Shown piece by piece: positions 6,001-12,568 of a DNA stretch of 64,000 nt. Positions within the stretch are counted from its first letter, which is position 1. Each line of letters begins with the position of its first letter. A model generated the notes under the pieces. It was not told where the DNA came from, did not search any database, and saw only the letters and a program-made list of their open reading frames with translations. Made by a program: the position numbers and the translations under genes. Origin of the DNA: Bacteroidota bacterium (GTDB lineage: Bacteria; Bacteroidota; Bacteroidia; AKYH767-A; 2013-40CM-41-45); NCBI GenBank assembly GCA_031417395.1, contig JANOVM010000057.1, forward strand, positions 18,078 to 82,077. The letters are read 5' to 3'.

Positions 6001-6628
6001 CTGCCCCAACTGTAAAACAATATGTCAATCGCTCTGCACAACCGGCGGCAAATGGATTAATTGGTAAGGAACAACCACCACCCTGTCCATCGGTCATAGG
6101 TTGTCCAAGTTGGATCGAACTCATACCAAAACCGGGAGGTGCAACAAGTGTAATAGGCGGATCTCCCGGTTTCACGCCCGGAGTCAATGGATCTATTCCC
6201 GGGCCGGTGGTAATATTAAATCTGATTGGAGCCGGAACTGCAGATGTCAAAATTAATCCAAGTGAATCATAATTTTTACCTTCTTCAGCCTGCCAAACAT
6301 CCCAACCATTTTCAGCACCCATATTGTAACAAGTACCACATGCAGAGGAGGATGATTGCCTCGAATAAGAGTGTACGGATAATTTTCTGCCTTGCTGAAT
6401 AATTAATTCATTTTGAGTGCGGATTGCATCCAAAGTTGCAGCGGGAATTTTGTTTGATTTGATTTGGTCCGAAACAGATGGCTTTTCTTTGAAAAAGACT
6501 GCTGCGTCTTTTGATTTATCCCGAATGTTTTGTGCGGCAGAATTAAAAGAATAAATGAATAGAAAAGCCATTATGAAAACAGCAATTCGTTTTGAAAATA
6601 AATAATAGGCAATACGTGTGGAATTCAT
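2999..6628 (-). CDS. large cell-surface protein with multiple PKD-like repeats and a gliding-motility-associated C-terminal domain (CHU_C / T9SS type B CTD)
   Basis: Signal/TM at the N-terminus. Repeated ~85-aa units of the type ...FSNNSS...YSW...GG...NPVVTFS..G.YTV.L (PKD-like). An 11-Gly tract. The C-terminus FFVPNAFTPNGDSENNLFYAKGMGIKNYDFWIYDRWGLKIW...YVWRAKVTD matches the CHU_C domain. Confidence 0.8.
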   Translation of the reverse strand: MNSTRIAYYLFSKRIAVFIMAFLFIYSFNSAAQNIRDKSKDAAVFFKEKPSVSDQIKSNKIPAATLDAIRTQNELIIQQGRKLSVHSYSRQSSSSACGTCYNMGAENGWDVWQAEEGKNYDSLGLILTSAVPAPIRFNITTGPGIDPLTPGVKPGDPPITLVAPPGFGMSSIQLGQPMTDGQGGGCSLPINPFAAGCAERLTYCFTVGAADTNFIYSYAFVMENPGDSTHTIDNMPYVEFMILDPNGDTIPCAYQRYIASESFPGQYTCNRARTGGGGGGGGGGGFMRDTAIYKPWTIEGVNLSNYIGQTLTVVITNADCRLGGHFAHSYWDFACGSSSVILKPNCYTNAPDTLVAPSSPDLINSYSYEWFLNKDTIPFATTQTVTSYAQPGDTFTVKVSLPSGCNWSARYVPQHFSVSANYIYTTHCGYVDFTSQCISPTPQDPIKYWQWNFNGGSPATSNVSNPDSIIFPSGTHSVTLISGTYSPGCIDTIQYTFNVPQNPAASFTAPNVCTDYPLTITNTSTIGVGDTISSYSWNIAGGNPAASSAINPVVTFSNSGSSQITLIVNTANGCPDTVQQTINIFETPVASFSAQSFCFGEQLSLANTSTLSPSGGPLSYSWSFTGGNPSSSAMVTPAVSYANPGNSTIQLIASSTGGCKDTIDKVISIYPLPQADFNAPINCAGTPYSITNLSTAFPGDTLATYAWNFENAVPAASSQTHPVITFQTVDTSLVELITTTIHGCSDTIAKQVIVSANPHADFSLPDICAGSEIIFSNNSSVQPAGANITYSWIIPGGSMTSSTAANPVVTFSTPGSYTVNLIASANGGCVDTAAFTLNVFPLPLSSFVSPTLCKNSTVTLVNQSSVSNGARLDYHWSVPYGQPDSSQLENPIIRFDTTGTFPITLIAETQKGCRDTSNGTATVYKLPEIQINSPDTGCIPFCHTFIDLSTSADGSIVQWGWNFPGGSPSISFSQNPDEVCYNTPGYYDASITVVNDLGCSAYKYFDNIIKVYSNPVADFSISTDLAGNYPPTLTFLDQSSSNVVHWTWDFGDSSSIVHGGPVEKHFYSSASGNDFYKFYTTLIVTTEYGCKDTIVKPNEINPNFTFFVPNAFTPNGDSENNLFYAKGMGIKNYDFWIYDRWGLKIWSCHEEGSNVPYDTYGNEGMSSSCQWNGTINGNPVQQDVYVWRAKVTDVFGKTHVYLGSVTVFY

Positions 6629-7339: not shown

Positions 7340-7648
7340 AATAATGATTTTTAAAAGGTTTATTCTGCAAAGTTGTTGTCAAAAGTCTCAAAATACAACC
7401 CAATGAAAGAAGGATAATTTATGCTGTGTACCTGTGAGCATGTATTAAGCGGGAACTTAAACAGTGACGAATGTGGTAAAAATTTATTTTCTGAAATTTG
7501 TTTTAAATAGGGGAGTGCAAATACGAAGTTTATATCAAGCAGTAAGTAAAATTTCAATAGGAAATAAAATGAAAACGGTTTCCCTTCCGTAAAAAAGAAA
7601 ACCGTTTATTCATTGCTGTATAAAAATGATAGGAACTTATGGCTTTTT

Positions 7649-8263
7649 TTATTTCAATCGAATTCCTACTCCAAATTCTAAAGATAGATTTGCCAGGTTC
7701 CCATCGACGGAATTAATGTCTGAGCTTTTAAAAGGATAAGGGTATAGAGGCAAATACATTCTATAGCTGAAAAAGTACTTCTTCGTTCCAACTTTAATAT
7801 TATACATTAATCCCAAGTCAGGACTAGAAGAACTTACAACTACTGACACTTTTTCAAATTCGGGATTGTTTAATGTTTCTTTGAAGGTATCGTATTTTAT
7901 TCCTGCAATAAGGGAAAATGTGTGAGAAGTGTGTTTCCCGGAAAAAGAAGTTCCAATCCCGAATTTTTGACTTAATGAATAATCGTAGTTTGTTTTAATG
8001 TAATTAAAATCTCTGAGAAAGGCATTGTTGTATGAAAAGGAAGTATGCGAAACAATGCTAAGACGTTTAAGAATATTCCATTGCGTAAGGTTGCTCAAAA
8101 GCAAAGCCGGCATGGGATATAATTTTATCCCGATTCCCATTTCAATTGTTAATTGACGATCCGTGATATTCTTCCTGGAAATTTTAGAAGAATCCAATTG
8201 ACCATAAGCAAATGAAAAATTTAAAAGCAATAAAGTGATAGATAAGGTTTGTATGAGTTTCAT
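7649..8263 (-). CDS. putative outer-membrane beta-barrel protein
   Basis: Signal peptide MKLIQTLSITLLLLNFSFAYGQ. Alternating hydrophobic beta-strand-like segments. The C-terminus has aromatic/hydrophobic residues (GVGIRLK) as in porin-like OMPs. Confidence 0.45.
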   Translation of the reverse strand: MKLIQTLSITLLLLNFSFAYGQLDSSKISRKNITDRQLTIEMGIGIKLYPMPALLLSNLTQWNILKRLSIVSHTSFSYNNAFLRDFNYIKTNYDYSLSQKFGIGTSFSGKHTSHTFSLIAGIKYDTFKETLNNPEFEKVSVVVSSSSPDLGLMYNIKVGTKKYFFSYRMYLPLYPYPFKSSDINSVDGNLANLSLEFGVGIRLK

Positions 8264-8307
8264 AATTATTTATTTTTTTAGAAATATGGATTTGATGTAT
8301 GTTAGAA

Positions 8308-9099
8308 TTATCTGTTTTCGAAATAAAAAGTTAAACCATCAACTATGTTTGGGTTCCGGGATCCCATATGGTCAAGATGTGGTTGGAGGTGACTGGTAAT
8401 TTTAATGTCAGGATAATTGTTTTGTAAACGTTGATGAAATGCTTCATAAGGAGCCGGCATTCTTCCACTATTCTCCAGTCCGCCCAAACCCATGAATACC
8501 AATTGATGATTATTCATGTTGATATTCCTGTTTTCTTTTTCGAATCGAAGCATTATTTCATTGTCATACCATATCGAAGGACTTAACATAAGGTAATTGC
8601 CGAATACATCATTGAAATTTGTAAAGGCGTAAGCAGCAAGCAAACCACCAAATGAATGTCCTAGAATAGTTCTGTTTTTTCGTAACGTGTCAGCCCCAAA
8701 GTCATTCTCTATTTTAGGTATTAATTCGTATTTCACAAACTGCATAAACTTTTCTGCACCTCCGCCGCCTTCACCGGTATTGGAAGGTGTGTAATCTATA
8801 GCTCTGTCATTTCCGTAACCAATACTAACTACCAGAACATTTGAAGTTGAATAATTACTGCAAATCTCTTTGCAATTATTTGTAACAAAGTTGAAATTCT
8901 CCTCCCCATCTAAAACATATACAGTTGCATATTTCTGAATGGAGGAATCGTAATTGTCAGGCAAAGCAATTTTAATTTTATAGTTTGCATTTGTTGAAGT
9001 TGATTGGATTGAAAACTCCTTTATCAGGCCGGGGTTTACATCTTCTTTTTTACAAGAAGTTATTAATATGATTAAAAATATTGGAAGTAGTTTTTTCAT
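8308..9099 (-). CDS. alpha/beta-hydrolase esterase (putative esterase family)
   Basis: Lipoprotein signal (IILITSCKK). GHSFGG nucleophile elbow (GxSxG), with a downstream His (HLDHMGS) and an acidic residue (SPSIWYD) consistent with a Ser-His-Asp triad. Confidence 0.7.
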   Translation of the reverse strand: MKKLLPIFLIILITSCKKEDVNPGLIKEFSIQSTSTNANYKIKIALPDNYDSSIQKYATVYVLDGEENFNFVTNNCKEICSNYSTSNVLVVSIGYGNDRAIDYTPSNTGEGGGGAEKFMQFVKYELIPKIENDFGADTLRKNRTILGHSFGGLLAAYAFTNFNDVFGNYLMLSPSIWYDNEIMLRFEKENRNINMNNHQLVFMGLGGLENSGRMPAPYEAFHQRLQNNYPDIKITSHLQPHLDHMGSRNPNIVDGLTFYFENR

Positions 9100-9145
9100 T
9101 TTTTGTTGTTTTCTTTAGTGGTTAGTGTTTTTTGATTTTGATATG

Positions 9146-9212
9146 ACAAATGTATATCCTTCATCACATGCCATTATTATATTACTTTGGGAAAGGATTA
9201 TAGAATTTTGGG
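9146..9212 (-). promoter_or_regulatory. promoter plus candidate operator upstream of the esterase gene (copy A of a duplicated bipartite element)
   Basis: In gene sense this reads CCCAAAATTCTATAATCCTTTCCCAAAGTAATATAA - 21 nt - ATACATTTGT. The distal 10-mer contains a TAnnTTTG -7 box. The 36-bp block is 34/36 identical to a second copy at 10898-10933, and both copies share the same 21-nt spacing to the 10-mer. Confidence 0.5.
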
Positions 9213-9230
9213 ATACTTGCATTAAGCGTA

Positions 9231-9265
9231 AAAAAAACTCCGTCGGTTGACGAAGTTTTAAAGAA
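9231..9265 (-). terminator. putative intrinsic terminator downstream of the multicopper oxidase gene
   Basis: Minus-strand reading aacttcgtc-aacc-gacggagtt followed by a T7 run. It lies 18 bp after the MCO stop. Confidence 0.45.
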
Positions 9266-9282
9266 AGCAGATAAAATCAATA

Positions 9283-10608
9283 TTAATGGTGATTCGTATG
9301 CATCATTTCTTTTTCTTCGTAGGACAAAGTGGGATCAATGAGGTCAAAGTTTGCCATCATACCGGCAGCGTGGTGTTCAAGAATATGGCAATGATACATC
9401 CAGGTTCCTGTGCGGTTATCCGGCATCCACGCTATTTTTATCTTGCTCCTTGGCGTTAAATTATAGGTGTCTTTCCACGCTCTGAATTCCGGAGCTTTGC
9501 CATTCTCTTCTAATACCTGGAAAAAGAAGCCATGGAGATGAAATGGGTGATCCATCATACTAACGTTTGAAATTTCCCATATCTGTAATTCTTCGATGTT
9601 TACCGGTTTATCATTGACATGCATGTTGTCATTAACCAGGAAATTCATTCCGTTCTTCAGACTGGGTCCGACAGAAAATTTTATCTTTCTTGTAGCAACA
9701 GCATTCTTCGAAGCAAGGGGTTTGATTTTCCTAAGAGTTTCAGGAATGAAGGCTACGGAAGGTTTGTTTTCTCCTACCTGAACCGTTGCAAATTTTTCCC
9801 GTTTTGCTTTGAGAAAAGTTACACGGTTATAGGGAAGAGATTCTATAGCAAAAGTCTCACCTGCTGTAAAGGGACCAACAGTGATATCTATCCGTTCACC
9901 GGGAGTAATCAATACTTCCGTAACAGTACGCGGATGTTCTAAGAGTCCGCCGTCAGTGCCGATTATTTTAAACTCTTTGCCCTCCAGATGTAGAAGAAAA
10001 TAGCGGGCACTTGATGAATTTATGAAACGCCATCTTTCGGTTTGGGAACCATTCACATTGACTATAGTATTTTCTTTTCCATTTAATAGTAGGGTATTGC
10101 CTTGTCGGCCATCGTGCCTTTCTACGACTCTTGGAATAAACCAACCGGGTTTTGTAAATTCATTGACAATGTTGAGTTTCATGTCATCAATCATAAAAAT
10201 TCTTTCGCCATCTGTAACAACATCCGTTTCGTCTTCGACAATCAAAGCGCCATACATACCTCTTTCCATCTGAACGGTTTCATTGGCATGTGAATGGTAC
10301 CAGAATGTACCTGCATCAGGAACAACAAAACGGTATTCAAAGGTTTCGCCGGGAGCAACAGGTTTCTGAACGCCGTCTGTTCCATCCATTGCTGCAGGAA
10401 GGCATATGCCATGCCAGTGAATGGTTGTTGGCTCATTCAGGTTATTCGTTAACCGGACAATAAGTGTATCGCCCACGTTTGCTCTTAATACAGGGCCGGG
10501 AAGCTGTTTGTTAAATCCCCAGGCTTCAACGGTTTTTCCCGGAGCAATTTCCCAATTAAAAGCACTTGCTTCAAAATTGTATTCTACTATTTTTGATTCG
10601 GATTTCAT
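9283..10608 (-). CDS. multicopper oxidase (laccase/CueO/CopA-like)
   Basis: Four copper-binding motifs are present: HWHG, WYHSH, HPFHLHG and HCHILEHHAAGMMANF. It has the three-cupredoxin-domain size of 441 aa. Confidence 0.9.
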   Translation of the reverse strand: MKSESKIVEYNFEASAFNWEIAPGKTVEAWGFNKQLPGPVLRANVGDTLIVRLTNNLNEPTTIHWHGICLPAAMDGTDGVQKPVAPGETFEYRFVVPDAGTFWYHSHANETVQMERGMYGALIVEDETDVVTDGERIFMIDDMKLNIVNEFTKPGWFIPRVVERHDGRQGNTLLLNGKENTIVNVNGSQTERWRFINSSSARYFLLHLEGKEFKIIGTDGGLLEHPRTVTEVLITPGERIDITVGPFTAGETFAIESLPYNRVTFLKAKREKFATVQVGENKPSVAFIPETLRKIKPLASKNAVATRKIKFSVGPSLKNGMNFLVNDNMHVNDKPVNIEELQIWEISNVSMMDHPFHLHGFFFQVLEENGKAPEFRAWKDTYNLTPRSKIKIAWMPDNRTGTWMYHCHILEHHAAGMMANFDLIDPTLSYEEKEMMHTNHH

Positions 10609-10681
10609 GATGATTAATTTTATTTTAGTTTTTATAGATTATTTTTCGTTAAAAAAGTCGCCCGGAGTGGGCGGCTTTGAA

Positions 10682-10798
10682 TTAGCAATTGCAGGAATTA
10701 CTGCAGTTACATTTTTCACATTTGCAAGATGTACCGCAAGTGCAGTTTTCACAGACACAAGGTTGACATGTGCATTTTGAATTGGCAGAATTTTTCAT
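10682..10798 (-). CDS. small cysteine-rich metallothionein-like peptide (38 aa, 12 Cys)
   Basis: Hand translation of the minus strand gives MKNSANSKCTCQPCVCENCTCGTSCKCEKCNCSNSCNC*, six regularly spaced CxC pairs. It lies between the HMA-AraC regulator and the multicopper oxidase on the same strand. It is below the 60-aa cutoff of the ORF track. Confidence 0.5.
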   Translation of the reverse strand: MKNSANSKCTCQPCVCENCTCGTSCKCEKCNCSNSCNC

Positions 10799-10866
10799 AC
10801 TGCTTTGAGCACCTTGGCTCTTTTTTAAGTTTGTTTTCATGACTTTTTTGAATTAAAATTTACACT

Positions 10867-10933
10867 ACAAATGTATGGCAAGCATGCACCGTGAGCGTTA
10901 TATTACTTTGGGAATGAATTATAGAATTTTGGG
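10867..10933 (-). promoter_or_regulatory. promoter plus candidate operator upstream of the Cys-rich peptide / multicopper oxidase unit (copy B)
   Basis: In gene sense this reads CCCAAAATTCTATAATTCATTCCCAAAGTAATATAA - 21 nt - ATACATTTGT (TAnnTTTG -7 box). It is near-identical to copy A at 9146-9212. Confidence 0.5.
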
Positions 10934-11032
10934 TTTCCTTAAAAGGAAGGTTTATTGCCTTTTATAAGCAAAAGCATTCCACCCGGATAATAGGCGAATA
11001 GTTAATAAAAAGGAAACAGACTAAATGAGCGG

Positions 11033-11608
11033 TTATACTTTATCAAGCGCTTTACGCTTTACCGTCCCAACTTTTTTAAAGTAAGAGGGTGTAAGTCCGG
11101 TGATTTTCTTGAATTGACTGGAAAGATGCGCTGTACTGCTATAATCAAGTTCAAAAGCAATTTCAGAGAGAGTCTTTTCTCCATAAATGAGTAACTCTTT
11201 AGCTTTTTCAATTCTTTGTTCAATATAAAAATTTTCTATAGTTCTTCCTTCGACTGATGAGAATAAACTGCTAAGATGTGTGTACTCATAATGCAGTTTT
11301 TCAGAAAGGTAGTTTGAAAGGTTTATTTTTTTTTCTTTAGAATCAACTTCGAACCGGGCTTTCTTAATTGCAAGCTGTTTGATTTTTTCAATCAGTCCGC
11401 TCATATGACTGTCGATTAATTCAAAGCCAATACCATTAAGATTTCTTGAAAGGGCAGTTTTCTGTTTTTCATTTAATTCATCCATTAAATGAATCTCACT
11501 AAAAAGAACTTTTTGAAAAGGGATCTTTTCTCTGTTTAGGATTTCTTCTACGGCCAGAACACAGCGATGACAAACCATATTTTTTACAAGTACAATATGT
11601 GAGGTCAT
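11033..11608 (-). CDS. AraC-family transcriptional regulator with an N-terminal HMA-like metal-binding domain
   Basis: The N-terminus IVLVKNMVCHRCVLAVEEIL has an MxCxxC motif in a beta-alpha-beta-beta-alpha-beta-like segment, as in the heavy-metal-associated fold. The C-terminus ...LSEIAFELDYSSTAHLSSQFKKITGLTPSYFKK is an AraC-type HTH. Confidence 0.7.
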   Translation of the reverse strand: MTSHIVLVKNMVCHRCVLAVEEILNREKIPFQKVLFSEIHLMDELNEKQKTALSRNLNGIGFELIDSHMSGLIEKIKQLAIKKARFEVDSKEKKINLSNYLSEKLHYEYTHLSSLFSSVEGRTIENFYIEQRIEKAKELLIYGEKTLSEIAFELDYSSTAHLSSQFKKITGLTPSYFKKVGTVKRKALDKV

Positions 11609-11956
11609 ATATAAATAGCGTATTATTATTTCTTGAGTATTTTCAGAATATCAACTTTAATATGGAATAATTGATTGTAATACCCAAAAGTAACTTAAAT
11701 AAAGCACATTCATGCCTCATTGGGCTTTGCGAGATTGCTTTATAGTAGATAAAAAAGGATGGAGATAAAAAAGTTTAGGGTACATTACATTATTCAATGT
11801 TATATTCAGCGAATACCCGACTTATTCTTAATCTTGCAGACAATTATCGCCGTTTTGAATAGTACTTTTTCCAAAAACTCTAAAACTGATAAATAATAAG
11901 GCTTGATAGAATTAATTCGGGAAACTTTGAAAAACATTAAACATTAAAGAATCAAT

Positions 11957-12568
11957 ATGAATCAGAAATGGGATGAACGGTATAAGGAGCATGAATTTGC
12001 TTACGGTAAAGAACCTAATGTTTTTTTCAAAGAGTGGATTTCGAAACTTGAACCCGGGGAAATATTAATGCCTGCCGATGGAGAAGGCCGCAATGGGGTA
12101 TTTGCTGCACGGCTTGGGTGGAAAGTAACGTCTTTTGATCTAAGCAAAGAAGGAAAATCAAAAGCTTTACAATTGGCCAAAGAGAATAATGTAACTATCG
12201 AATATATTGTTGGGGATTTAGAACAACTCGAGTTTGAACAAAAAACATTTGATGTCATAGGACTTGTGTATGCGCATTTTTCAGCAGACAAGAAATCTAC
12301 CTTCCACCTGAAATTAAATAGCTTTCTCAAACCCGGAGGGGTAATTATTTTTGAGGCTTTCAGTAAGAAGCAAATACAGTATAAAAAACTCAATCCTCAA
12401 GTAGGTGGCCCCGATGATATTAATATGCTGTACTCCAAAGAAGAAATAATTGCGGATTTTGGTAATTATGAAGTCTTAATGTTAGAAGAAGAAGAAATTC
12501 TTTTAAATGAAGGAAAATATCATAATGGAAAGGGTTCTGTGATAAGATTTGTTGGGAGAAAAAAATAA
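11957..12568 (+). CDS. class I SAM-dependent methyltransferase
   Basis: Motif I ILMPADGEGRNGVFAARLGW (D/ExGxGxG) followed by acidic VTSFDLS. Size 203 aa. Confidence 0.65.
   Translation: MNQKWDERYKEHEFAYGKEPNVFFKEWISKLEPGEILMPADGEGRNGVFAARLGWKVTSFDLSKEGKSKALQLAKENNVTIEYIVGDLEQLEFEQKTFDVIGLVYAHFSADKKSTFHLKLNSFLKPGGVIIFEAFSKKQIQYKKLNPQVGGPDDINMLYSKEEIIADFGNYEVLMLEEEEILLNEGKYHNGKGSVIRFVGRKK

Follow-up and report, generated by a model that had tools for sequence, protein, structure and literature searches.

What does an AraC-type regulator respond to when the place of its usual ligand-binding domain is taken by a segment resembling a copper chaperone, and which genes does it serve? This question is raised by a 64,000-nucleotide stretch of a Bacteroidota genome (contig JANOVM010000057.1; the whole stretch is called the window here), where the gene for such a regulator lies on the minus strand together with genes for a Cys-rich peptide, a multicopper oxidase, and an esterase. 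An earlier note, made from the DNA alone, had read these four genes as a copper-handling module sharing a duplicated operator. All four open reading frames (ORFs) are present where the note placed them, and our ORF and Pfam reading of the window carries the unit past position 8308 to five co-oriented genes by adding a gene for a 204-aa protein and the terminator-like site behind it. We consider it probable that this is a copper-responsive, possibly more broadly soft-metal-responsive, regulon under a one-component sensor in which a heavy-metal-associated (HMA) domain replaces the usual ligand-binding domain. The proposal is carried by the gene content, the homology of the regulator's N terminus to HMA domains, the invariance of its metal-loop motif, the specificity, conservation, and fixed geometry of the operator, and the cargo that recurs behind it. 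The features on which the argument turns are as follows.

11033 to 11608, minus strand: HMA-AraC regulator gene, 191 aa, with an AraC double helix-turn-helix (HTH); residues 1 to 95 have no Pfam match
11411 to 11608, minus strand: N-terminal HMA-like, putatively sensory domain of the regulator, aa 1 to 66, with Cys13 and Cys16 encoded at 11561 to 11572
11072 to 11308, minus strand: AraC-type double HTH DNA-binding domain of the regulator, aa 101 to 179, PF12833 and PF00165
10867 to 10933, minus strand: operator-promoter copy 1, with repeat 1 at 10919 to 10933, repeat 2 at 10898 to 10912, and the -7 box TACATTTG at 10868 to 10875
10682 to 10840, minus strand: gene for a Cys-rich metallothionein-like peptide, 52 aa, 12 Cys, six CxC pairs
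9283 to 10608, minus strand: multicopper oxidase gene, 441 aa, three Cu-oxidase (cupredoxin) domains and four His-rich copper motifs
9146 to 9212, minus strand: operator-promoter copy 2, with repeat 1 at 9198 to 9212, repeat 2 at 9177 to 9191, and the -7 box at 9147 to 9154
8308 to 9099, minus strand: gene for an IroE/BesA-like esterase lipoprotein, 263 aa, PF00756, GHSFGG
7649 to 8263, minus strand: putative outer-membrane beta-barrel gene, 204 aa, no Pfam match; outside the coordinates of the earlier note

The regulator, whose sequence includes IVLVKNMVCHRCVLAVEEIL, belongs to the AraC/XylS family by its C-terminal pair of HTH motifs, which match HTH_18 (PF12833) at 3.8e-18 and 66 bits against a cutoff of 33.6 and HTH_AraC (PF00165) at 3.1e-09. 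AraC-type families were the only ones matched in Pfam and NCBIfam, and neither database placed the protein with CsoR/RicR, CueR (MerR), CopY, or ArsR. It is the N terminus that sets it apart. The earlier note had seen there an MxCxxC segment of HMA type in front of the AraC HTH, and predicted fold, structure comparison, and profile comparison all agree with it. An AlphaFold2 model of residues 1 to 95 (30-sequence alignment, mean predicted local distance difference test score [pLDDT] of 79.7) has strands at 4 to 9, 31 to 35, 38 to 41, and 63 to 65 and helices at 14 to 26 and 47 to 59. This is the beta-alpha-beta-beta-alpha-beta order, with a conserved linker helix (residues 68 to 84) after it. 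The segment M11-V-C13-H-R-C16 is predicted to lie between the first strand and the first helix, so that both cysteines sit at the beta1-alpha1 junction, as in the M-x-C-x-x-C metal loop.

In a Foldseek search of the PDB with this model, roughly the top 20 ranks, and most ranks through 30, were taken by CopZ, Atx1, HAH1, MerP, and the metal-binding domains of P-type ATPases (best E value 5.5e-3, probability ~1.0, TM-score on the target 0.53 to 0.69). A profile of 37 diverse family members, searched against PDB sequences, matched ATP7B (8.2e-12), WLN5-6 (5.7e-7), Bacillus subtilis CopA (3.5e-5), and CopZ (1.2e-4), and hhalign against a small HMA alignment gave a probability of 94.9% and an E value of 4.3e-8. 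The single N-terminal sequence gave a weak match to CopZ (1cpz, E value 0.4) in the same PDB sequences. Together, these comparisons support the view that the regulator carries a divergent, CopZ-like HMA domain.

The metal loop is also the part of the protein that does not vary. K-N-M-V-C-x-R-C was found in 75 of 75 close homologues and M-V-C-x-x-C in all 43 of the more distant full-length representatives, whose identity goes down to about 30%, and these two cysteines are usually the only ones in the regulator proteins. A single search returned 7,890 homologues, the top 120 of which are mostly 191 aa long (range 181 to 233) and at least 70% identical to the query; the N-terminal domain by itself matches 545 clusters at 50% identity. 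The earlier note's remark that an HMA-AraC regulator is unusual thus holds for the literature but not for nature: we found no description of an HMA-AraC regulator, a Bacteroidota metallothionein, or a copper-responsive AraC protein in open-access literature, and the architecture itself is common.

The second line of evidence is the operator. Two 67-bp elements in the window share one plan: two CCCAAA(A/G)T..T.TAA direct repeats 21 bp apart (CCCAAAATTCTATAA, then CCCAAAGTAATATAA), a fixed 22-nt spacer, and TACATTTG, which we take to be the Bacteroidota -7 promoter box (consensus TAnnTTTG). The earlier note's duplicated operator is therefore real: its 36-nt pattern is matched at exactly two places in 64 kb and was never matched in 100 shuffles. 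A scan with a weight matrix, derived from 53 homologous operator sites, gave the same two sites and no others, at 53.8 bits for copy 1 and 56.1 bits for copy 2. The copies are identical at 50 of 67 positions, unevenly distributed: 34 of 36 in the operator, 7 of 22 in the spacer, and 9 of 9 in the -7 box. We rejected a recent local duplication as the explanation because identity is confined to the operator and the -7 box while the spacer has diverged, and the same mosaic is seen between distant genomes; such a mosaic points to selection on function.

Those comparisons come from 80 genome loci (numbered with L below, as are the metagenome contigs) around regulators 62 to 94% identical to that of the window, from Chitinophagaceae, Saprospiraceae, Flavobacteriaceae, and unclassified Bacteroidota. 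Isolates with the unit include Ferruginibacter paludis CECT 8366 (L026), Flavobacterium soyangense CGMCC 1.13493 (L033), and Confluentibacter lentus HJM-3 (L069). Searched by regular expression and then by weight matrix, 71 of the 80 have the operator within 400 nt past the regulator stop codon, mostly at a distance of 0. The 858 kb of these loci contain 90 operator sites, nearly all on the regulator's strand; shuffled sequence contains none. CCCAAA, T.TAA, CCCAAAGT, and T.TAA form a near-invariant core, and in 49 of the 53 homologous sites, repeat 2 lies 37 nt from the -7 box. The promoter spacer, at about 53% GC, varies in sequence.

The earlier note had held that the motif, were it widespread upstream of unrelated genes, would be a generic promoter element. 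We addressed this with an operator-first scan of 241 million metagenome records in which the degenerate operator alone was the query. It returned 65 sites, spread over 62 contigs; in 49 cases, a regulator homologue lies directly in front. Of the remaining sites, those whose downstream gene could be identified mostly precede the Cys-rich peptide, the esterase (L085, L086, and L138), or the oxidase (L100); one precedes a TonB-receptor-like gene (L089), a few have no scorable ORF, and some lie at contig ends. With the specificity seen in the window and with genome and metagenome sites tied to the regulator or its targets, the idea of a generic promoter element was rejected.

The gene most constantly found behind the operator encodes the Cys-rich peptide. 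At most of the 90 genome sites and most of the 65 metagenome sites, the first ORF 20 to 40 nt past the box specifies 34 to 59 aa with 7 to 13 Cys. In the window, the peptide is 23% Cys and has no Phe, Tyr, Trp, or His, a composition typical of metallothioneins. The six CxC pairs that the earlier note had counted are present, but its length of 38 aa is most likely too short: homologues share the N terminus MKTxLKKS, and L085 has Arg in place of the internal Met, which places the start at the ATG at 10840. The resulting 52-aa protein represents a longer subtype shared with L001, L085, L095, and L120. Across Chitinophagaceae, Saprospiraceae, and Flavobacteriaceae, the peptide is conserved at the amino acid level with fixed Cys spacing (consensus core C-S-N-P-N-C-T-C-x-N-C-N-C-G-S-x-C-T-C-x-N-C), and each of the eight core Cys positions is TGT in some and TGC in others of 75 distinct DNA sequences, which indicates that the cysteines are kept while the DNA drifts.

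The peptide belongs to no metallothionein sequence family so far described in Pfam or NCBIfam, where it had no match even at an E value of 10 or below. No homologue sharing words with it was found in an index of 5.8 billion proteins, and in an exact look-up of eight such peptides in a collection of 15 billion proteins, seven were missing and one was present but unnamed. It is most likely a metallothionein-like peptide, predicted to buffer metal, from a new and almost wholly unannotated family. We also considered that the mini-ORF might not act as a protein at all and might instead be a leader whose Cys codons govern the terminator ahead of the oxidase gene, or a chance ORF. A terminator-like hairpin does lie directly 3' of it, and it is missing from the protein databases checked. 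Yet conservation of the amino acid sequence in three families, the fixed Cys spacing, and the interchange of TGT and TGC all speak for a translated product; in many loci no gene of the conserved cluster was detected downstream on the same strand, and tandem promoter-peptide copies occur in L011, L033, L037, L102, and L141. We regard the leader or chance ORF as extremely improbable.

Two further observations concern this gene. The duplicate promoter-peptide units, which are tandem or nearby (positions 2911 and 3227 in L011, 6576 and 6902 in L033, 6576 and 8318 in L037, and also in L102 and L141), recall the amplification of metallothionein genes under metal selection. In three loci, a good operator is followed by an ORF that keeps the N terminus but is Cys-less or truncated (about 6673 to 6830 in L015; L053, with its operator on the minus strand at site 4932 in reverse-complement coordinates; and about 1210 to 1300 in L142), which suggests frameshifts, whether from sequencing error or from decay.

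The next gene encodes a multicopper oxidase, as the earlier note had claimed. Its three domains match Cu-oxidase_3, Cu-oxidase, and Cu-oxidase_2 in Pfam, its four copper motifs read HWHG, HSH, HPFHLHG, and HCHILEHHAAGM, and its C terminus is MMHTNHH. The nearest solved chains are 6vow, Tth-MCO (2xu9), and CueO, with PDB matches at 1.9e-59 and below. No Tat or Sec export signal was found: the N terminus, MKSESKIVEYNFEAS, is hydrophilic, the ORF cannot be extended upstream, and the alignment with 6vow pairs residue 9 of the query with residue 39. Oxidase homologues located behind operators of their own (directly 3' of the element in L050, L064, and L100) start in the same way and likewise have no signal. 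A cytoplasmic three-domain multicopper oxidase, as predicted here beside a likewise cytoplasmic Cu-thionein, would be unusual. That peptide and oxidase are the regulator's targets, as the earlier note proposed, agrees with the presence of both downstream of the operator in many genomes.

The second operator copy precedes a different pair. The esterase matches PF00756 (putative esterase, an alpha/beta-hydrolase family) at 8e-20 and has a lipoprotein signal ending in ILITSC and a GHSFGG nucleophile motif. Its PDB matches are Bacillus BES (2qm0, 1.8e-20), the IroE-like 3gff (4.7e-19), and fungal and bacterial siderophore esterases, followed by the feruloyl esterase 1jjf (3.6e-6); matches in NCBIfam were far under the cutoffs. 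The protein is thus probably IroE/BesA-like, that is, siderophore-esterase-like. The 204-aa product of the following gene has 348 homologues, all labeled hypothetical. AlphaFold2 predicts a signal helix and a barrel of about eight long strands (pLDDT of 78.4), for which Foldseek matched OmpA-TM, Ail, and OmpX at E values of 3e-6 to 3e-4; the model points to a small OmpA/OmpX-like outer-membrane barrel in an uncharacterized family of about 350 members.

The earlier note had treated the esterase as coregulated but not an obvious member of a copper regulon. Its operator copy stands: the element lies directly 5' of the esterase gene on at least eight unrelated contigs (the window, L001, L033, L062, L084, L085, L086, and L138). 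The doubt about membership does not, since the esterase behaves as a conserved core member. It adjoins the 204-aa gene in about 20 loci, the latter never having been seen away from it, and the usual cassette order, seen in about 10, is regulator, peptide, esterase, 204-aa gene, and oxidase. In the window, by contrast, the oxidase gene has moved forward and a second operator stands before the esterase gene. Elsewhere the operator is found 5' of DJ-1/PfpI-like lipoprotein genes (L002, L050, and L064) and of a gene for a 185-aa lipoprotein (L054, L090, and others). Frequent neighbors in the loci are a periplasmic HMA protein and its 269-aa partner, DUF6010 and DUF2147 proteins, a GlxA-type regulator, and a cyclase-like protein with a weak, subthreshold YHS-domain match (E value 0.0036; 17.7 bits against a cutoff of 30.3).

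Why copper? For the close subfamily, copper is suggested by the oxidase, the peptide, and the periplasmic HMA neighbor. Clearer indications come from more distant relatives, 38 to 46% identical, encoded on 11 annotated plasmids of Cytophagia and Sphingobacteriia. Nine of these 11 contexts are copper or heavy-metal clusters with genes for P1B-ATPases, CopZ-like proteins, cupredoxins, multicopper oxidases, a four-helix copper-binding protein, and RND/TolC components.

Hymenobacter (two plasmids): P1B-ATPase, cupredoxin, regulator
Mucilaginibacter robiniae: ATPase, CopZ-like protein, hypothetical protein, regulator, multicopper oxidase, DUF305 protein, four-helix copper-binding protein
Spirosoma: multicopper oxidase, hypothetical protein, regulator
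Aureibacter: regulator, then a Cu/Zn efflux transporter
Fulvitalea: regulator, then a CopZ-like protein, then an ATPase
Bernardetia, Adhaeribacter, and Fibrella: RND/TolC genes and a copper ATPase

The earlier note had suggested looking in other Bacteroidota for the HMA-AraC architecture next to multicopper oxidase genes, and the Spirosoma and Mucilaginibacter plasmids provide examples. MVCxxC is kept in the six of these relatives that we translated (both Hymenobacter plasmids, Mucilaginibacter, Spirosoma, Aureibacter, and Bernardetia). The regulatory layout is kept as well: a pair of direct repeats at a 21-bp distance, some 22 nt of spacer, and TACTTTTG lie 5' of the ATPase operon on the Mucilaginibacter plasmid, and the same arrangement follows the Aureibacter regulator gene, ahead of the Cu/Zn efflux transporter gene. 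One of the two exceptions to the metal contexts, a Runella rosea plasmid protein (L144, 7989 to 8549), reads FMVSLRC, having lost the first Cys, and has no metal genes nearby. This single case is possibly a natural sensor-dead or repurposed paralogue.

The same architecture could nonetheless serve another or a broader effector, such as Cd, Zn, Hg, Ag, or Au, with the peptide a Zn/Cd-type metallothionein as in SmtB-SmtA. HMA domains act in Zn, Cd, and Hg systems too, and ZiaA, CadA, and MerP were among the Foldseek matches; the sequence of a metallothionein does not reveal which metal it prefers; and one relative adjoins a transporter annotated for Cu/Zn efflux, while the P-type ATPases in several contexts are annotated merely as heavy metal translocating. 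The family profile, however, is much closer to the Cu(I) domains listed above than to those of ZntA (0.42) or ZiaA (0.53). Domains for divalent metals carry GMDCxxC loops, and here the first Cys has no acidic residue before it. The cargo is dominated by multicopper oxidases, cupredoxins, the four-helix copper-binding protein, and ATPases annotated as copper translocating, and no CzcD-, ZntA-, or Mer-type genes were seen in the contexts inspected. A noncopper or broader effector therefore seems unlikely to us.

Several observations weigh against copper sensing by an HMA domain as we propose it. PF00403, the Pfam HMA family, had no match in the single regulator sequence at E values up to 0.1, and the Foldseek E values are modest even at their best. 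The window's close subfamily showed neither a copper ATPase nor a Cus-type pump within 6 kb, an oxidase with no export signal is odd for a cuprous oxidase, and we know of no established role for the esterase in copper handling. The DJ-1/PfpI proteins, the GlxA-type regulator, and the quinone-oxidoreductase-like dehydrogenase that neighbor the genes would fit electrophile or redox stress equally well. The first of these points may have a simple cause: PF00403 is blind to so divergent a single sequence, which is probably why the proteins are everywhere labeled plainly as AraC family transcriptional regulators.

The last point leads to a different proposal, in which the two cysteines would form a thiol switch, through a disulfide or through alkylation by quinones or aldehydes, and the regulon would detoxify phenolics. 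The esterase would release these compounds, a laccase-like oxidase would process them together with DJ-1 proteins and quinone reductases, and the Cys-rich peptide would be a sacrificial thiol. Recurrence of the DJ-1/PfpI, GlxA-type, and zinc-type dehydrogenase neighbors suits this idea, as do the membership of feruloyl esterases (1jjf) in the esterase family and the ability of multicopper oxidases to act as laccases. Against it, the peptide keeps a strict CxC/CxxC spacing, as is typical for metal-thiolate clusters and not for a thiol sink, the cysteines of the sensor occupy the canonical metal loop of a domain homologous to metal-binding HMA domains, and the distant relatives sit within efflux-pump and chaperone clusters. 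We hold a thiol switch to be very unlikely. Judged from the sequences compared here, copper, possibly with silver, would be the most likely effector, other soft metals the second, and a thiol or electrophile signal the third.

How might a copper-sensing HMA-AraC protein reach its promoters? Copper specificity, metal binding, and activation, as opposed to repression, are what we infer in the following account. Cu(I) would be bound by Cys13 and Cys16 of the NMVCxRC loop, and metal loading would pair or reorient two regulator molecules, whose double HTH domains would then fill the two direct-repeat half-sites. Each half-site consists of two conserved blocks, CCCAAA and T.TAA, one helical turn apart, as expected for the two HTH motifs of one AraC-type domain, and two direct half-sites 21 bp apart imply that two molecules would bind next to each other. 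HMA domains are able to dimerize by sharing one Cu(I) or a small Cu cluster, and the Cu-bridged HMA dimers 2qif and 1fee were among the Foldseek matches. Since the regulator has only two cysteines, metal-bridged pairing or reorientation through the linker helix would be the simplest coupling of metal to DNA.

The proximal half-site would abut the -33 position of a promoter having a -7 box only, which suggests class-II-type activation, as by AraC at araI1-araI2. A -33 TTG is expected about 19 nt upstream of a -7 box; at that place, site positions 36 to 38 read C, A, and N, not TTG. Tandem half-sites 21 bp apart that end where the -33 element should be are thus a putative AraC/XylS-type layout. 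The AraC family also has repressors and dual regulators, and a metal-released repressor or a dual regulator has to be considered here. A repressor site would be expected over the -7 box or the transcription start, whereas this operator lies upstream of the core promoter, ends at the -33 place, and stands where the TTG is missing; a direct repeat abutting the -35 region of a -7-box-only promoter is the classic layout of an activator. Repression or dual control is accordingly quite unlikely in our estimation. Under activation, operator copy 1 would drive the cytoplasmic metal-buffering peptide and, by read-through of a weak terminator, the signal-less oxidase, and copy 2 would drive an envelope pair, the esterase lipoprotein and the small outer-membrane barrel.

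A wider form of the proposal is one that we could argue either way: HMA-AraC proteins would be an unrecognized, phylum-wide class of metallosensor and the "missing" cytoplasmic copper sensor of Bacteroidota, working by Cu(I)-bridged pairing, with a Cu-metallothionein as universal first target and the oxidase and envelope pair as further arms. Bacterial metal sensing is usually described through ArsR, MerR, CsoR, CopY, Fur, DtxR, NikR, and a few other families. In 2024, a survey of the copper genes of Bizionia argentinensis, a flavobacterium, reported no MerR- or CopY-type regulator with a conserved copper site, named ArsR-type proteins as fallback candidates, and never mentioned AraC. The word AraC is likewise absent from 300,000 characters of a 2024 review of bacterial metal sensing. 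The sensor architecture and the peptide family appear to be new and apparently undescribed, while the kind of regulon, a metalloregulator with a metallothionein and an oxidase, is known; by sequence comparison, the unit of sensor, operator, and peptide seems to recur across the phylum.

Among known systems, the RicR regulon of Mycobacterium tuberculosis (RicR; MymT, MmcO, LpqS, and SocAB), with one operator before several units, is functionally closest, as it too places a repeated operator before a Cys-rich metallothionein, a multicopper oxidase, and a lipoprotein (PMC3944814). RicR differs in being a CsoR-family repressor freed by Cu(I) from a palindromic operator, where we see an HMA-AraC protein, a direct repeat, and a likely activator; peptides and regulators of the two systems are unrelated in sequence, and the window oxidase has no export signal. 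CueR of Escherichia coli, which acts on copA and cueO, is alike as a cytoplasmic Cu(I) sensor that activates a multicopper oxidase gene, and a P1B-ATPase target is common to CueR and the distant HMA-AraC relatives. CueR, of the MerR family, binds Cu(I) in a loop at its C terminus and turns on a promoter with a long spacer by distorting the DNA. Unlike the regulator described here, it contains neither an HMA nor an AraC domain and does not have a metallothionein among its targets. SmtB-SmtA of cyanobacteria shares the adjacency of a metal sensor gene and the metallothionein gene under its control, but SmtB is an ArsR-family repressor released by Zn. SmtA is a Zn-finger-like metallothionein with His ligands, and the window peptide did not match the SmtA-type family in Pfam or NCBIfam.

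For a copper-activated metallothionein gene, the nearest parallel is Ace1/Cup2 and CUP1 of yeast, where a copper-loaded activator turns on a small Cu-thionein, and the tandem promoter-peptide units recall the amplification of CUP1. The short form of the peptide ends C-x-C-x3-C-x-C-x2-C, which is also the spacing of the Neurospora crassa Cu-metallothionein; the window peptide matches no Pfam metallothionein family. Ace1 also differs in its eukaryotic copper-fist domain with a polynuclear Cu cluster, and neither yeast partner is homologous to those found here. With AraC at araI1-araI2 and other class II activators, the regulator shares the C-terminal double HTH and half-sites about 21 bp apart, the proximal one abutting the -35/-33 region. 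AraC, however, senses arabinose through a cupin-type dimerizing N terminus in place of an HMA fold of about 66 aa and a linker helix, and the promoter here is of the Bacteroidota -7 (TAnnTTTG) type, unlike AraC's. CopZ, Atx1, HAH1, and the metal-binding domains of P1B-ATPases have the beta-alpha-beta-beta-alpha-beta fold, with M-x-C-x-x-C at the beta1-alpha1 junction, that is predicted for the regulator, but all of these traffic metal and none is a DNA-binding fusion, and the regulator has an N-M-V-C-x-R-C signature of its own.

If the proposal is true, a trafficking domain has been recruited as a sensor, which would be a new sensor architecture, and a copper regulator would be supplied for a major environmental and host-associated phylum. 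The metallothionein-like family, overlooked by gene callers, is invisible in proteomes and metagenome annotations. The regulon would aid the reading of metal stress in soil, sludge, and freshwater metagenomes, and operator and peptide together are a possible copper biosensor part for Bacteroidota.

It remains to place the genes in transcription units. A consensus scan returned three terminator-like sites.

10978 to 10998, minus strand: terminator-like hairpin 3' of the regulator gene, found by the consensus scan only
10650 to 10673, minus strand: terminator-like hairpin and T run in the gap between the peptide and oxidase genes, CGCCC-ACTCC-GGGCG and then ACTTTTTTAA
7573 to 7607, minus strand: terminator-like hairpin with a 16-pair stem that closes the unit of the esterase and 204-aa genes

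The regulator gene is predicted to be transcribed by itself, and promoter 2 to serve the esterase and 204-aa genes. No promoter box of its own was seen 5' of the oxidase gene in the window; read-through from the peptide gene is thus presumed, and promoter 1 would serve both. An Rfam scan of 7400 to 12100 found no RNA family, so that the intergenic conservation is not explained by a known riboswitch or small RNA. None of the genes flanking the unit in the window (for a PKD/T9SS protein, a cyclase, a TPR protein, a PhyH dioxygenase, and an ATP-grasp protein) has a link to metals.

The first hairpin lies in a gap (10934 to 11032) between the regulator stop codon and the operator. A gap of about 96 to 102 nt occurs in the window and in its closest relatives, L001, L085, L095, L120, L132, and L142, but is missing from most other genomes (L003 to L080, around positions 6574 to 6580), where the regulator stop codon TAA belongs to the conserved operator flank. 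Some loci (L002, L004, L006 to L008, L012, L014, L025, L041, and L073) have a GC-rich inverted repeat in the promoter spacer, for example, CACCC-N5-GGGTG, which in those loci could double as the terminator of the regulator gene. As a general terminator, the spacer hairpin was rejected, being present in a subset of loci only and overall barely different from shuffled sequence.

Some other neighbors deserve mention. A 215-aa class III cyclase-like protein, the one with the weak YHS match, which is C-terminal, is often encoded immediately upstream of the regulator on the same strand (L011, L021, L036, L044, L056, L060, L066 to L071, L077, L079, and others), as is, in many cases, the DUF6010 membrane protein with its His-rich motif; both are missing from the window. 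The TonB-dependent-receptor-like gene behind the L089 operator (minus strand, 957 in reverse-complement coordinates) encodes a carboxypeptidase-regulatory-like N terminus, and the Chondrinema plasmid relative also adjoins a TonB receptor gene. Taken with the siderophore-esterase-like gene, these receptors hint at some connection with metallophore traffic. Cu(II) is reduced by catecholate siderophores, which CueO oxidizes in E. coli; it is a speculative thought that this chemistry connects the esterase and barrel to a copper response. Finally, a gene for a TehB/TPMT-like class I SAM (S-adenosylmethionine) methyltransferase lies divergent from the regulator gene in the window (11957 to 12568, plus strand). 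L001 and L029 also have a member of this cluster in the vicinity of the regulator, and methyltransferase genes also adjoin the regulator in the Aureibacter and Spirosoma plasmid clusters, so this association may be a recurrent one.

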